From: Alphaproteobacteria bacterium
GTDB lineage: Bacteria; Pseudomonadota; Alphaproteobacteria; Bin95
Length of the DNA: 64,000 nucleotides
Assembly (NCBI GenBank): GCA_029978325.1
Contig: JAPOJR010000002.1
Span: forward strand, 2,717-66,716
Direction of reading: 5' to 3'
In this document: piece by piece, positions 29,184-35,010 of the stretch
Layout of the letters: each line of letters begins with the position of its first letter
Numbering within the stretch: the stretch's first letter is position 1
The notes under the pieces: model-generated
Database searches by the model: none
What the model saw: only the letters and a program-made list of their open reading frames with translations
What the model was told of the DNA's origin: nothing
Made by a program: the position numbers and the translations under genes

Positions 29184-32100
29184 ATGTTGCGCAATCTGAT
29201 CGAAAAATGGCCGGCAGAAATTACCCTGGTGCCGTATTCCGGTATCCAGATCCTGGATTTCGGTCTGAATATCGACGCTGGCGGCCGTGGGTCTATGGCA
29301 TTTTCCGAGCGCATGGTGGAGCAAAAGGATGAAGGCGACGTCTGGCAACTGTTTCCCCACTCGCAAGACGACGACCTGAACGCGCAGATTCCACCGCCCC
29401 GGGTCGATGGCGACGAGGACTATTCGATCTCGAAGGTAAAAGCGCTGGAGCCGTTCCTGAACCGCTGGACGCCCGCCCCTTTGCTGCGTATCCGCCCGGG
29501 CGCCGGCCCGCGCGGCCAGGAGTTGTTCGACGCCGGCCCATCGACCTGGGCACGGTTCTATGTGCTGGAGTTGGACCAGCGCGACCCGGAATCCGGCTTT
29601 ACCCACCGGCTGATCCTGGCGGTTGATACTGACCTCTCGGAAGCGCCGTCGGATGCGGGCGACGATGGACCTTACCTCGCGCCGACGGTCAAGGATTCCG
29701 CTGACGAAAGCGAATTCCGTCTGGCCACCAATGCGGACCAAATGGCCTGGTTCCTGCGCCGGGAGGTGGAGGACATCGACGGCAGCCGGTTCGACCAGCA
29801 GAAATGGGTGGATGACTGGCTGGACGACCAATACAAAACCTTCCGCCAGGCGCAACGCCCGAACCGGGAATTGCGCCCGGAGGATTTTCCGTTCCGCTTC
29901 GAACACTGGGCCCGCTATCTGGCGTGCCTCGCACTGATCGGCGAAGCCGTCCGTCCGCCGAAAATCCGCCTGCTGGATACGGTCTCGGAAGATCAGCGCT
30001 ATCAGTGCATCGAAGTCGACCTCGTGCTCGACATCGGCAACAGCCGCACTTGCGGCATCCTGGTGGAGAGCTATCCGGACGATCCGCGGGTCGACCTCAA
30101 CAATTCCTTTGCCCTGTCGATGCGCGACCTCGGCCGCCCGGAATTGTATTACCGGCGCCCGTTCGAGAGCCGCATCGAGTTCGCGCAGGTCGATTTCGGC
30201 CCGGAACACATTTCGCGGCGATCCGGCCGCAGCAATCCGGCCTTTCTCTGGCCCAGCCTCGTCCGCGTTGGGCCCGAAGCCACCCGGCTGGTGCAAGGGA
30301 CGGAAGGCACAGAAACCCTCAGCGGCCTTTCCAGCCCAAAGCGCTATCTGTGGGACACGCAGCCCGTCAACCAGGACTGGCGCTTTCAATCGATCACCGC
30401 CCGGCAAACCCTGCCGTTGATTGCGCGCTCGGCCTTCAGGTTCCTGAATGAGGCGGGCGACGTCATTTCCCAGGTGACGGTCGAGGAAGACGCCAAGCTG
30501 CGCAGCCGCAACGAGACCAGCAAGACCAGCGCCATCCGCCCGCGGTTTTCCCGCTCGTCGCTGTATTCCTTTATGCTCTCGGAATTGATCATCCACGCTC
30601 TGGTGCAGATCAACGACCCGGCCTCGCGCGCCACGCGCAAACAATCCGACCTGCCGCGCCGATTGCGCAACATCATCCTGACCCTGCCATCGGCGACACC
30701 TATGCAGGAACAGGCGATCATGCGCTCGCGCGCCGAAGCCGCCATCCGGCTGACCTGGTCGATCCTGGGATGGCGCGACGGCCAGGCCATGACCTGCAAG
30801 ATGCCCACCGTCATGGTGGAATGGGACGAGGCGAGTTGTACGCAACTGGTCTGGCTCTATGATGAAATCACTCAGAAATTCGGCGGCCAGATCGAATCCT
30901 TTTTCGCCTTGCATGGCCGCAAGCGACAGCGGCCGCCGCCGCAATTTGCGCTGGCCAATGCGACAACCGCCCCCCGACGCTCGGGACCGGAAGATTCCTT
31001 ACGCGTCGCCTGCATCGATATCGGCGGCGGCACCACCGACCTGATGGTCACCACGTATTACAGCGATGACAACCGCGCGATCCTGCCCGTGCAGAATGTG
31101 CGCGAGGGCTTTCGCATTGCCGGTGACGACCTGGTGCAAGAAGTCGTCTCCCGCGTCGTGCTGCCGCAAATTGGCGATCAGATTCAAAGCAAAGGCGGAA
31201 GCTTCATCAATGAGTTGTTCCATGAATTGTTCGGCGGCGACGTCGGCGATGTGGAAGAACAGGTGCGGCAGCGCCGGCGGCAATTTTCCATCCAGATCCT
31301 GACGCCAATCGCGCTCGCCATGCTGGAAGCGTGCGAATCCCTGTCCGCCAGCGATACCCGCACACTGCACCTGACCGACATTGTCGGCACGCTGCCGCAA
31401 CCGGATGCTGGCCCGCTTAATACGGACGACGCAACACCGCCCGAACTCGCCATTGCACCCGACATTATCGGCTACCTGCAGAAACCGGCTCGCGAACGCG
31501 GTGCTACGGATTGGGCGCTGTCCAGCGTCGCCATCGACGTGAACCCCAACACGATAGACGAGGTGGTTCGCGACGTGTTGGGCCCGGCGCTGGAGCCCAT
31601 GTTGGAGCTGATTGACCACCTCGCCGCTGACGTCGTGCTGCTGTCCGGCCGGCCGACGCGGCTGCTGCCAGTGGCCGATCTGGTACGAGAGGCCATGGTG
31701 GTGCGGCCGGACCGGATTATCGCCATGCACGACTACAGGGTGGGCGGCTGGTACCCCTATCGCGACCGTGTCACCAACAAGATTGGCGACCCCAAAACGA
31801 CGGCTGCGGTCGGCGGCATGCTGTGCCTGCTGGCTGCCAACCGGATCATGAATTTCAAGCTGGAAACCGAGCAGATCCATATGCGGTCCACAGCCCGGTA
31901 TATCGGCGAGATGGAGCGCAACGGCCAGATATTCTCGGACCGCGTGCTGATGTCCGACGTCGATTTGCAGGCGAAAGCCGGCGCGGACGATACGGCGGAG
32001 GTATTGTTGCGTTCGCCGATGCATATCGGCTTCCGGCAGCTGCCACATGACCGCTGGATCGCCAGCCCACTCTACCGCTTGGACTTCAGCAACGAGAACG

Positions 32101-35010: not shown

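Follow-up and report, generated by a model that had tools for sequence, protein, structure and literature searches.

What do SrfB and SrfC do in the cells that produce them? The question is raised by the srfB-srfC gene pair in a 64,000-nucleotide stretch of DNA from Alphaproteobacteria bacterium (GenBank assembly GCA_029978325.1, contig JAPOJR010000002.1, positions 2,717 to 66,716 of the forward strand), which was analysed as a whole, is called the window below and provides the coordinates. srfABC genes are annotated as 'virulence factor' or 'effector' in thousands of genomes, including Salmonella, Klebsiella plasmids, Enterobacter, the Yersinia group and many marine alphaproteobacteria. An original prediction, made from the sequence of the window, had held this label to be uninformative and had read the pair as an ATPase and a GTPase. 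Its opinion of the label agrees with a 2025 review, in which SrfB and SrfC are each a 'putative type III effector' and are given no function (PMC11942329); in Xenorhabdus, SrfABC is presented as a tripartite toxin, with no statement on domains (PMC6950479). In the full text of about 8 million open-access papers and preprints, we found no link of SrfB to Hsp70, ASKHA or actin-like folds, nor of SrfC to dynamin or to a GTPase, and superfamily-level entries may exist in InterPro, ECOD or AlphaFold-DB. Our results lead us to assign to both proteins a nucleotide-binding fold and an enzymatic type, Hsp70-like for SrfB and dynamin-like for SrfC, and we consider these assignments very likely to be correct.

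Gene models and conservation of the nucleotide-binding motifs

The two genes follow each other on the plus strand:

29184..32339, plus strand: srfB, 1051 aa, predicted cytoplasmic; matched over its full length by Pfam PF07520 (E=0)
32350..35010, plus strand: srfC, 886 aa, predicted cytoplasmic dynamin-like GTPase; matched by Pfam PF10139 (E about 1e-255)

The srfC open reading frame (ORF) opens at 32293, and its likely start is the ATG at 32350, 10 nt past the srfB stop codon, with a GAGGGA Shine-Dalgarno sequence that overlaps this stop codon. The start at 32293 was discarded in favour of 32350, on which the homologues agree with an independent gene call made on a 97%-identical metagenomic contig; this call and the homologue lengths also give 886 aa for SrfC, the 887 aa announced earlier having included the stop codon. 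srfB and srfC, separated by these 10 nt in the window and overlapping by 1-4 nt in Klebsiella and Rahnella, are tightly packed and probably translationally coupled.

Translation reproduces exactly all five motif peptides that had been quoted for the two proteins. Their conservation was assessed in alignments of 53 SrfB and 52 SrfC sequences of 45-97% identity. D283, G285, N286, D612, G614-T617 and D619 are invariant in SrfB, as are G67, P68, S69, Q70, G72, K73, S74, D335-G341, T431, K432 and D434 in SrfC. The occurrence of the motifs is far above chance: when each protein was shuffled 20,000 times with matched composition, the ordered G1, G3 and G4 set was obtained in 4.5e-4 of the SrfC shuffles and the two ordered SrfB motifs in 0/20,000, and the pattern D[ILVM]GGG[ST] occurs a single time across the six frames of the 64-kb window.

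SrfB resembles Hsp70 in predicted structure and motif order

The AlphaFold2 (AF2) model of SrfB (mean predicted local distance difference test, pLDDT, 87.1; predicted template modelling score, pTM, 0.90) comprises three regions: an N-terminal domain (aa 1-272), an Hsp70-like nucleotide-binding domain (NBD; aa 273-890), which holds about 225 aa of insertions, and a beta-rich C-terminal domain (aa 896-1051). Compared by Foldseek with the Protein Data Bank (PDB), the model gives 196 matches at E<=0.001, of which the top 50 are all Hsp70 or Hsp110 structures (E 2.5e-15 to 3e-11, probability 1.00, about 800 aligned columns), with DnaK, BiP/GRP78, Hsc70, Ssb, Hsp110 (Sse1), mortalin and Ssz1 among them. 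The best matches are constructs in the ATP-bound open conformation that contain both the NBD and the substrate-binding domain (SBD); such constructs outrank NBD-only structures, and in SrfB the NBD is followed by the beta-rich domain of about 150 aa.

SrfB had been described as a possible 'polymerising or chaperone-like ATPase'. The second term is favoured by the Hsp70/Hsp110 neighbours, and the first is unsupported because no actin, MreB or ParM structure is present among them. A filament former of the actin/MreB/ParM type was thus rejected, FtsA being also absent from the top 50; the sole actin-like trace in SrfB is a 17-residue FtsA Pfam match (E 0.22).

Eight motifs of the Hsp70 NBD can be followed along SrfB in the DnaK order, and all are kept in SrfB proteins of about 35% identity from a Klebsiella plasmid, Salmonella, Rahnella and Haematospirillum (referred to below as the divergent homologues):

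30018..30056, plus strand: PHOSPHATE-1 (aa 279-291, by translation), SrfB DLVLDIGNSRTCG against DnaK IGIDLGTTNSCVA, D283 facing DnaK D8; cores LVLDIGNSRT and IGIDLGTTNS, respectively
30330..30356, plus strand: lysine motif SSPKRYLWD, proposed match to DnaK FAIKRLIGR, which holds K70
30669..30743, plus strand: CONNECT-1-like strand and helix NIILTLPSATPMQEQAIMRSRAEAA, strand 492-501 then helix 507-528 in the AF2 model; SrfB core IILTLPSATPMQEQ, against DnaK CONNECT-1
30822..30836, plus strand: glutamate motif WDEAS, proposed match to DnaK NEPTAA, E549 facing E171
31017..31040, plus strand: PHOSPHATE-2 (aa 612-619, by translation), SrfB DIGGGTTD against DnaK DLGGGTFD (D194, T199)
31107..31130, plus strand: CONNECT-2-like GFRIAGDD, against DnaK THLGGEDFD; cores IAGDD and LGGED
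31629..31673, plus strand: ADENOSINE motif, SrfB DVVLLSGRPTRLLPV against DnaK DDVILVGGQTRMPMV; cores VVLLSGRPTRL and VILVGGQTRM
31788..31817, plus strand: C-terminal end of the NBD, DPKTTAAVGG, against DnaK NPDEAVAIGAA

The catalytic set D283, K386, E549, D612 and T617 of SrfB follows the order of DnaK D8, K70, E171, D194 and T199. The placement of the motifs in the SrfB model was read from the DSSP string. DIGNS forms the loop of a hairpin between strands 276-284 and 288-296, and GGGT that of a hairpin between strands 603-613 and 618-628, both at ASKHA-type positions; G822 stands between strand 817-821 and a helix, a strand-to-helix turn as in the ASKHA adenosine motif. The identification of the two first-noted segments as phosphate-1 and phosphate-2 loops of the actin/Hsp70/sugar-kinase fold is thus borne out by their ASKHA placement in the model and by the invariance of their residues.

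The other motifs are conserved to a comparable extent in the 53 sequences. In the lysine motif, which was used as the most conserved peptide pattern of SrfB in the genome scan, no variation is seen at S383-Y388, W390 or D391; among the divergent homologues, residue 386 may be either K or R, with R387 unchanged. D548, E549 and A550 are likewise invariant, are kept in all divergent homologues and lie at a strand/helix junction of the model. As judged from motif order, K386 would correspond to DnaK K70 and E549 to DnaK E171. The segment at 30669..30743, also kept in the divergent homologues, may be equivalent to CONNECT-1, and GFRIAGDD, with R640-F643 and A646-D648 invariant and kept in the divergent homologues, may be equivalent to CONNECT-2. 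D816, L819, G822 and R823 are invariant in the adenosine motif. DPKTTAAVGG, in which D869, P870, K871, T873 and G877 are invariant and kept in the divergent homologues, could represent the end of the NBD as found in DnaK.

Profile comparisons were made by hhalign between SrfB and E. coli DnaK, HscA and HscC and Rahnella HscC. SrfB 607-622 is locally matched to DnaK 188-204 (E 2.7e-4 to 7.5e-4), with D612 and T617 aligned, and SrfB 782-842 to DnaK 296-361 (E 2e-3 to 6e-3), this second match being collinear with the first. When the SrfB profile was compared with PDB sequences, the top matches were to DnaK at the adenosine motif (E 0.63), and a single-sequence PDB search with SrfB gave nothing significant.

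The likeness of SrfB to Hsp70 (DnaK, BiP, Hsp110, HscA, HscC) lies in the fold of its NBD, in the order of its eight motifs and in the presence of a beta-rich domain after the NBD. SrfB differs from Hsp70 by its extra 270-aa N-terminal domain, its insertions and the absence, in the model, of an alpha-helical lid after the C-terminal domain; it also differs by being paired with a dynamin-like GTPase and bitopic adaptors, with no J-domain or GrpE gene nearby. No hydrophobic segment, transmembrane helix or signal peptide was found in SrfB by a hydropathy scan. Structure prediction thus supports SrfB being a highly diverged Hsp70-type ATPase rather than an actin-like filament former.

SrfC resembles BDLP and mitofusins in predicted structure

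The AF2 model of SrfC (pLDDT 86.7, with lower values in the switch regions; pTM 0.73) starts with a helical hairpin (aa 1-58), followed by a G domain (aa 59-500) that contains a helical insertion of about 120 aa. Beyond the G domain lie a helical bundle (aa 510-650) and a C-terminal helical domain (aa 703-886), connected by a disordered Pro-rich linker (aa 654-698). Foldseek places Nostoc BDLP first among PDB structures (2j69, E 3.8e-6; 2j68, E 1.6e-4), then MFN1, MFN2 and yeast Fzo1 (E 3e-3 to 2e-2, probability 0.98-1.0), and then mycobacterial IniA and human MxA. SrfC had been proposed to be 'dynamin- or septin-like': these neighbours retain the dynamin part, and a septin-like SrfC was rejected, no septin being found among the top 50 PDB matches. 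The G motifs are the following, G1, G3 and G4 being given by translation:

32548-32571, plus strand: G1/P-loop GPSQAGKS (GxxxxGKS)
32683..32709, plus strand: candidate G2/switch I ESTGIVTRF, leading into strand 117-121, with T118 as candidate Mg/gamma-phosphate threonine
33352-33372, plus strand: G3/switch II DLLDFPG (DxxG)
33640-33651, plus strand: G4 TKFD (N/TKxD), D434 being the guanine-specificity aspartate

In the model, G1 is made up of strand 61-66, the P-loop and helix 70-81, the DxxG motif ends strand 334-338, and TKFD directly follows strand 426-430. This layout is that of a P-loop GTPase, and GPSQAGKS, DLLDFPG and TKFD are invariant in the 52 sequences, in agreement with their earlier reading as a GTPase set; for SrfB and SrfC alike, structure prediction and Foldseek, which had been suggested as a check, place the motifs inside nucleotide-binding folds. 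ESTGIVTRF, in which E112, T114, G115 and V117-F120 are invariant, could constitute G2; the corresponding switch-I stretch of dynamin, GIVTRRP, is comparable.

Members of the dynamin superfamily are characterised by a G1 of the form GxxxxGK[ST], a G2 threonine, a G3 DxxG followed by a hydrophobic residue and not by Gln, and a G4 of the form [N/T]KxD (PMC5084822). SrfC presents GPSQAGKS, the candidate T118 within GIVTRF, DFPG followed by Ala, and TKFD. Its Q70, at the third variable position of the P-loop (32557-32559), is invariant in the 52 close and in 18 divergent homologues, degenerate clade (see below) included, whereas this position is occupied in the superfamily by Ser in dynamin (cation), by an Arg finger in GBP, by Lys in BDLP and by Asn or Gly in others.

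The helices located before (aa 2-58) and after (aa 510-640) the G domain would fit a neck/HD1 bundle of the BDLP/mitofusin type. PDB sequence searches with SrfC, as a single sequence or as a profile, gave nothing significant and no dynamin, and the Pfam matches of the 52 members are weak and at the level of the P-loop (AAA_16 in 46, MMR_HSR1 in 11 and GBP in 1). SrfC shares with bacterial dynamin-like proteins (DLPs) and mitofusins, its top structural neighbours, a large G domain, G1-G4 and flanking helices. It differs from dynamins by the helical insertion in its G domain, by the lack of a paddle or transmembrane segment, and by the 45-aa Pro-rich disordered linker that precedes a separate C-terminal helical domain. 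Neither a transmembrane helix nor a signal peptide was found in SrfC. The structural neighbours of the model and the positions of its G motifs support SrfC being a GTPase of the dynamin superfamily, on its BDLP/mitofusin side.

The usual partner of a bacterial DLP gene is another DLP gene (PMC6104087); SrfC has, in contrast, the Hsp70-like protein as its partner. A precedent exists for a dynamin concealed by a 'virulence factor' label, as would be the case for SrfC: LeoA, labelled 'GTPase virulence factor', is a bacterial dynamin tied to vesicle-associated toxin release (PMC4159319).

A degenerate SrfC branch in Enterobacteriaceae

SrfC varies across the family. In the long-form systems of Klebsiella plasmids and Haematospirillum, SrfC has kept G1, G2 and G3, and G4 reads TMCD or TMFD; only T and D of G4 are kept family-wide (TMCD, TMFD, TPFD, TPQD). 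A chromosomal Enterobacteriaceae clade of 714-725 aa, found in Salmonella enterica, S. bongori, Citrobacter, Enterobacter, Kosakonia, Lelliottia, Yokenella and Phytobacter, has a P-loop of the form GxxQ[SA][AS]KAH, I, L or V in place of the switch-I threonine, and a G3 DxxDIP devoid of Gly. This entire clade thus departs from the dynamin superfamily by its lack of catalytic motifs, and its partner SrfB proteins have intact ATPase motifs. In the neighbourhoods viewed (Salmonella and Enterobacter), degenerate SrfC goes with a three-gene short form devoid of the vWA, ABC and FGE genes that accompany the long form.

Since the G motifs are degenerate across this clade, the namesake SrfC of Salmonella and Enterobacter is, judging by its sequence, probably a pseudo-GTPase, which may be one reason why a GTPase activity was never suspected for SrfC. 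The record NZ_CP110932.1 ('Salmonella plasmid unnamed1') is linear, carries the chromosomal-looking genes steA, ansP and sifB, and is probably a misassigned chromosomal contig; its srfC (locus L083, 13961-16119) is interrupted by a frameshift, lies in frames 0 and 2 and does not figure in the gene table.

srfB and srfC belong to an envelope gene cluster

In the window, srfB and srfC lie within a tightly packed plus-strand cluster (23749-41602), whose other genes are:

23749-24510, plus strand: coiled-coil Gly-zipper lipoprotein, 253 aa; lipobox, weak Gly-zipper Pfam matches
24563-25063, plus strand: coiled-coil lipoprotein, 166 aa; lipobox
25070..25828, plus strand: canonical SrfA C-terminal (periplasmic) domain alone behind a signal anchor/lipobox, 252 aa; SrfA_fam positions 264-437 (E 1.8e-13), N-terminal hydrophobic segment
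25838..27895, plus strand: SrfA N-terminal domain (SrfA-N), transmembrane helix (aa 242-260), periplasmic trypsin-like serine protease and Pro-rich tail; SrfA_fam E 7.9e-11 on the N-terminal part, Trypsin_2 E 2.6e-22
27900..29162, plus strand: SrfA paralogue, 420 aa, with cytoplasmic SrfA-N, transmembrane helix (aa 205-223) and periplasmic beta-rich DUF2135-like head; NCBIfam SrfA_fam E 1.6e-24, weak DUF2135 match
35034..36059, plus strand: bitopic protein, 341 aa, with cytoplasmic N-domain, Pro-rich linker, transmembrane helix (aa 188-206) and periplasmic Sel1/TPR-like domain; weak Sel1 match
36037..38061, plus strand: periplasmic vWA protein with signal peptide; VWA family matches E about 3e-4
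38058-38819, plus strand: ABC ATPase of the MacB/LolCDE type (type VII); Pfam ABC_tran, and LolD, FtsE and MacB-like NCBIfam matches
38792-40030, plus strand: FtsX-family permease with 4 transmembrane helices and a large periplasmic loop; Pfam FtsX
40034..41602, plus strand: periplasmic FGE-sulfatase (SUMF1/PvdO-like) protein with coiled-coil tail; PF03781 E 1.4e-25, signal peptide

The FGE gene is the last of the cluster, the next gene being on the opposite strand. The two lipoproteins are probable accessory members: homologues of the Gly-zipper lipoprotein adjoin the cluster in 10 related loci; in other genomes they come after the FGE gene, and on a Klebsiella plasmid (locus L082, 6962-8261) upstream of srfA. 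The Haematospirillum orthologue of the 341-aa bitopic protein is annotated as a TPR protein, and the vWA gene is annotated as such on Klebsiella and Haematospirillum plasmids.

The three SrfA-type genes stand in a row (25070-29162) with their modules shuffled, the DUF2135/YfaP-like match of the third head being weak. Canonical SrfA appears to have been split and diversified into adaptors with interchangeable periplasmic heads, and we propose that the 420-aa paralogue is the membrane adaptor of SrfB and SrfC. BLASTP found nothing between the two SrfA-N paralogues, so that their relatedness relies on their common NCBIfam SrfA matches. The mechanical ORF of the 420-aa paralogue runs from 27684 and overlaps the protease gene by 212 nt; its start is almost certainly the ATG at 27900, 4 nt past the protease stop codon. 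Over-extended ORF starts are likewise seen for srfC (32293), for the FtsX gene and for the vWA gene (TTG 36037, against a 658-aa call on a sister contig). Long Pro/Ala-rich linkers of low complexity are found in five cluster proteins: at 34309-34443 (SrfC aa 654-698), 27600-27895 (protease tail) and 35360-35590 (341-aa protein, cytoplasmic), and as periplasmic stalks at 25250-25300 (aa 98-125 of the 252-aa SrfA C-domain protein) and 28650-28730 (aa 272-291 of the 420-aa SrfA).

As SrfB and SrfC carry neither signal peptide nor transmembrane helix, the Srf system can be described as a cytoplasmic nucleoside triphosphatase (NTPase) half and a periplasmic half, joined by the bitopic proteins and the ABC transporter. 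A loose parallel to the proximity of an Hsp70-like and a Sel1-like protein in the Srf cluster is offered by the neighbourhood of the Hsp70 gene hscC in E. coli K-12 (678000-686000), where two J-domain proteins, DjlB and DjlC, are encoded together with YbeT, a Sel1-repeat protein.

Distribution and conservation of gene order

Relatives of SrfB were found by the genome scan in at least 588 species-representative genomes, and cluster genes were counted in the best 80 loci, all alphaproteobacterial. srfC directly follows srfB in 68/69 loci, the exception being an alphaproteobacterial metagenome-assembled genome (OZ242016.1, 13030-23018, locus L035) where srfB comes after SrfA-type genes with no srfC or cluster gene within 10 kb downstream. 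The vWA and FtsX permease genes are each present in 58/62 loci, the ABC ATPase gene in 57/62, the FGE gene in 56/62 and the gene of the 341-aa bitopic protein in 53/62, and srfC, vWA, ABC ATPase, FtsX permease and FGE genes occur together in 55/62. Upstream of srfB, a SrfA-family gene is found in 55/64 loci and the SrfA-N-protease paralogue in 46/56. The paired ATPase and GTPase core proposed from the sequence is not a free-standing core of two proteins, since it lies within a conserved envelope cluster of 10-12 genes.

The order of the cluster genes is kept in free-living marine and soil alphaproteobacteria (Roseobacter group, Rhodovulum, Azospirillum, Devosia), and the long form is also carried by Klebsiella and Haematospirillum plasmids. 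Of the 144 plasmid records with srfB, 114 are from Klebsiella, and K. pneumoniae plasmid NZ_CP137420.1 (IncFIB/IncHI1B) carries the full long form, from SrfA to FGE. On this plasmid, the cluster is located just downstream of IS110 and IS1 copies and adjoins a gene annotated 'tellurite resistance domain protein'.

The srfABC 'toxin' operons of Salmonella, Xenorhabdus and Haemophilus belong to the same Pfam/NCBIfam families as the window genes, and those of H. parainfluenzae and X. stockiae have flanking Lol-like ABC, vWA and SUMF1/FGE genes that are also present in the window. The published operons differ in that no fold or activity has been assigned to their SrfB and SrfC, and the window differs from them by its three SrfA-type genes with swapped periplasmic heads and its two lipoproteins. 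Salmonella srfABC exists only as a three-gene short form whose SrfC GTPase is degenerate. In a preprint of September 2026, SrfA is made up of a kinase-like N-domain, a transmembrane helix and a lipocalin-like C-domain, the flanking Lol-like ABC, vWA and FGE genes are pointed out, an AlphaFold3 SrfABC complex is presented in which SrfB is bound to SrfA and SrfC joins afterwards, and vesicle export is proposed (10.64898/2026.09.18.752743). Hsp70, dynamin and GTPase are never mentioned in this preprint.

A membrane-anchored system driven by two cytoplasmic motors

We favour, with moderate confidence, the reading that SrfB and SrfC are cytoplasmic nucleotide-driven motors of a membrane-anchored system and not secreted toxins. 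Membrane remodelling as their output is more tentative. Catalysis by SrfB and SrfC, their physical complex and this output are what we infer as follows. As neither protein has a membrane anchor of its own, their most likely docking sites would be the cytoplasmic N-domains of the SrfA-family bitopic proteins, with the Sel1-like bitopic protein as a possible further one. SrfC could then undergo GTP-dependent self-association on the SrfA adaptors, so that the inner membrane would be deformed, tethered or severed; this action is modelled on that of other bacterial dynamins, BDLP, IniA, DynA and LeoA, of which DynA and IniA are known to act on membranes (PMC12998192, PMC6715688). SrfB, through an Hsp70-type ATP cycle, would load, hold or dismantle the adaptor/SrfC assembly. 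The cytoplasmic energy input would be coupled to the periplasmic half, composed of the SrfA heads (including the protease), the vWA and FGE proteins, the two lipoproteins and the MacB/Lol-type ABC transporter. The cue or the cargo could come from the periplasmic heads, together with the vWA protein, the FGE protein and the mechanotransmitting ABC transporter, and the outcome might be envelope remodelling, repair or vesicle formation.

A bolder version of this mechanism, which we regard as quite unlikely, would make the Srf cluster an inner-membrane budding, scission or repair machine, by analogy with the pairing of dynamin and Hsc70 in eukaryotes. The bitopic SrfA adaptors would pick periplasmic cargo or sense envelope damage, the paddle-less SrfC, recruited by adaptors as Drp1 is by its receptors, would constrict or fuse the membrane, and the Hsp70-like SrfB would assemble or strip the coat. 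If true, this would account for the reported release of 'toxin' by vesicles, and the cluster would be the first prokaryotic system in which Hsp70-type and dynamin-type motors are hard-wired together.

Several points weigh against cytoplasmic motors of these two types. The assignments of both proteins are drawn from prediction. No HSP70 Pfam match (PF00012) was obtained for SrfB, even at E<=5 on the isolated NBD. The hhalign probabilities are low, at 3-25% over the full length and 6-42% for the short local matches; because only such local matches were obtained, the SrfB-Hsp70 relationship relies mainly on predicted structure and motif order. SrfB aa 885-1051 has no sequence similarity to the DnaK SBD by hhalign (probability 0.6%), and no DnaJ/J-domain or GrpE match was found by Pfam and NCBIfam in the ten cluster proteins encoded at 25070-41602; the SrfA N-domain could conceivably stand in for such a partner. 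As for SrfC, no Dynamin_N Pfam match was obtained with the 52 members or the isolated G domain, the Foldseek E-values are modest and the whole-chain template modelling scores low (0.19-0.43), as a result of its being a multi-domain, flexible protein. SrfC has no recognisable membrane paddle or hydrophobic segment, no 19-residue window exceeding 1.38 on the Kyte-Doolittle scale. Since the Enterobacteriaceae clade has lost G1, G2 and G3, some versions of the Srf system must be able to do without GTP hydrolysis. Finally, a cytotoxic activity has been published for Xenorhabdus SrfABC (PMC6950479) and a host target for Salmonella SrfA (PMC11942329).

Alternative explanations

The alternative that survives best, although we find it unlikely, is that the cluster is an NTP-gated conflict or defence system, in which the Hsp70-like protein and the GTPase would act as a threshold or switch that deploys variable effectors (the protease and the SrfA heads) after a cue in the periplasm or envelope, for example a phage attack. 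Its analogues would be the GTPase- and vWA-centric systems of Kaur et al. (2020) and the dynamin-based DynA and Eleos/LeoABC. Kaur, Burroughs, Iyer and Aravind described GTPase-centric conflict systems, some of them with HSP70 (PMC7159879), and the likeness to the Srf cluster extends from the combination of a TRAFAC GTPase with HSP70 to vWA and FGE/FGS-type domains, peptidases, membrane-proximal components and variable modules. The vWA, the FGE/FGS-type domain, the trypsin-like protease and the SrfA paralogues with swapped periplasmic heads speak for this alternative, as constant NTPases combined with variable modules follow the 'grammar' set out in that paper, which reports TRAFAC GTPases with HSP70; the presence of the long form on large Klebsiella plasmids beside insertion sequences and the protection of Bacillus against phage by DynA (PMC12998192) are also in its favour. 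However, the GTPases of Kaur et al. are DO-GTPases, a different family with a Walker-B glutamate, often duplicated and defined by co-occurrence with a GAP1 partner, whereas the neighbours of SrfC are dynamins; their HSP70 is conventional and comes with GrpE and DnaJ; and the Srf genes come in a fixed order, with those of a MacB/Lol-type ABC transporter among them. Neither dynamin nor any Srf protein, SrfB and SrfC included, is named by Kaur et al.

The stability of the gene order across the 80 alphaproteobacterial loci is, moreover, unlike that of typical defence islands, and the cluster lacks classical effectors such as a nuclease or a TIR protein. PADLOC gave no match for SrfB, SrfC, the two protease-less SrfA-type proteins, the 341-aa protein, the vWA protein, the FtsX permease or the FGE protein, its only matches in the cluster being generic ones to the protease domain and the ABC ATPase, and no homologues were found in 50,697 phage records. 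A phage origin and a known defence system were thus both left without support.

SrfB and SrfC could alternatively serve biogenesis or quality control, which we consider decidedly unlikely. SrfB would chaperone the SrfA-type membrane proteins, the two lipoproteins would be taken care of by the Lol/MacB-like ABC transporter, and SrfC would be a targeting or assembly GTPase, with no large-scale remodelling. Chaperones in the open, ATP-bound state are the nearest structural neighbours of SrfB, which fits this proposal, as do the two lipoproteins encoded with a Lol-like transporter, for which the preprint argues in terms of a specialised Lol module (10.64898/2026.09.18.752743), and the lack of a membrane paddle in SrfC. 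It is countered by the structural neighbours of SrfC, which are membrane-remodelling dynamins and not targeting GTPases of the SRP/FtsY or Get3 type, by the lack of a J-protein or nucleotide-exchange factor in the cluster (Pfam, NCBIfam), and by the lack of sequence similarity between the C-terminal domain of SrfB and an SBD (hhalign).

According to the published view, the three Srf proteins would form a secreted tripartite toxin or act as type III effectors inside host cells, with any nucleotide-binding folds serving a function there. We find this very unlikely. SrfB and SrfC have no signal peptide or transmembrane helix, and all three SrfA paralogues of the window have a predicted transmembrane helix or signal anchor; in two of these, which are bitopic, the N-domain is cytoplasmic. 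The cluster is common among free-living alphaproteobacteria, where it is always linked to periplasmic and ABC-transporter genes, the Salmonella operon is under FlhDC control and affects swarming (PMC4219756), and the invariance of the catalytic residues indicates that the nucleotide-binding sites are under selection. These facts have to be set against the cytotoxicity of X. stockiae SrfABC, expressed in E. coli, to insect and mammalian cells, with all three proteins needed for full activity (PMC6950479), and against the report that Salmonella SrfA reaches the host cytoplasm and acts on the Tollip/IRAK-1 complex (PMC11942329).

It is finally most improbable that the motifs are evolutionary relics and that SrfB and SrfC are pseudo-enzyme scaffolds, even though the degenerate Enterobacteriaceae SrfC is still retained as a full-length gene in many genera and the SrfA N-domain has itself been described as a catalytically dead kinase-like scaffold (10.64898/2026.09.18.752743), since every catalytic residue of both proteins is invariant in the clade of the window (45-97% identity), since the SrfB motifs are intact even in Salmonella, and since such conservation of Mg- and phosphate-contacting residues would be unexpected without nucleotide chemistry.

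Significance for the Srf family

We class SrfB and SrfC as very divergent variants of known superfamilies: family tests based on profiles failed for both, and their predicted structures and catalytic motifs are those of the Hsp70 and dynamin superfamilies, to which very divergent branches would thus be added. No earlier description of a fixed genetic coupling of Hsp70-like and dynamin-like motors in bacteria was found in the open-access literature searched. With cytoplasmic motors of a membrane-anchored system as the preferred reading, SrfB and SrfC would no longer be regarded as 'secreted' and would be placed at the inner membrane, on its cytoplasmic side. Studies of the three-gene Salmonella operon would then concern a reduced form, devoid of the vWA, ABC and FGE genes and with degenerate GTPase motifs. 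If SrfB is taken as Hsp70-type and SrfC as dynamin-type, the mechanism of these two proteins, each of about 1000 aa, becomes a hypothesis open to testing, for which the point mutations to make are obvious.

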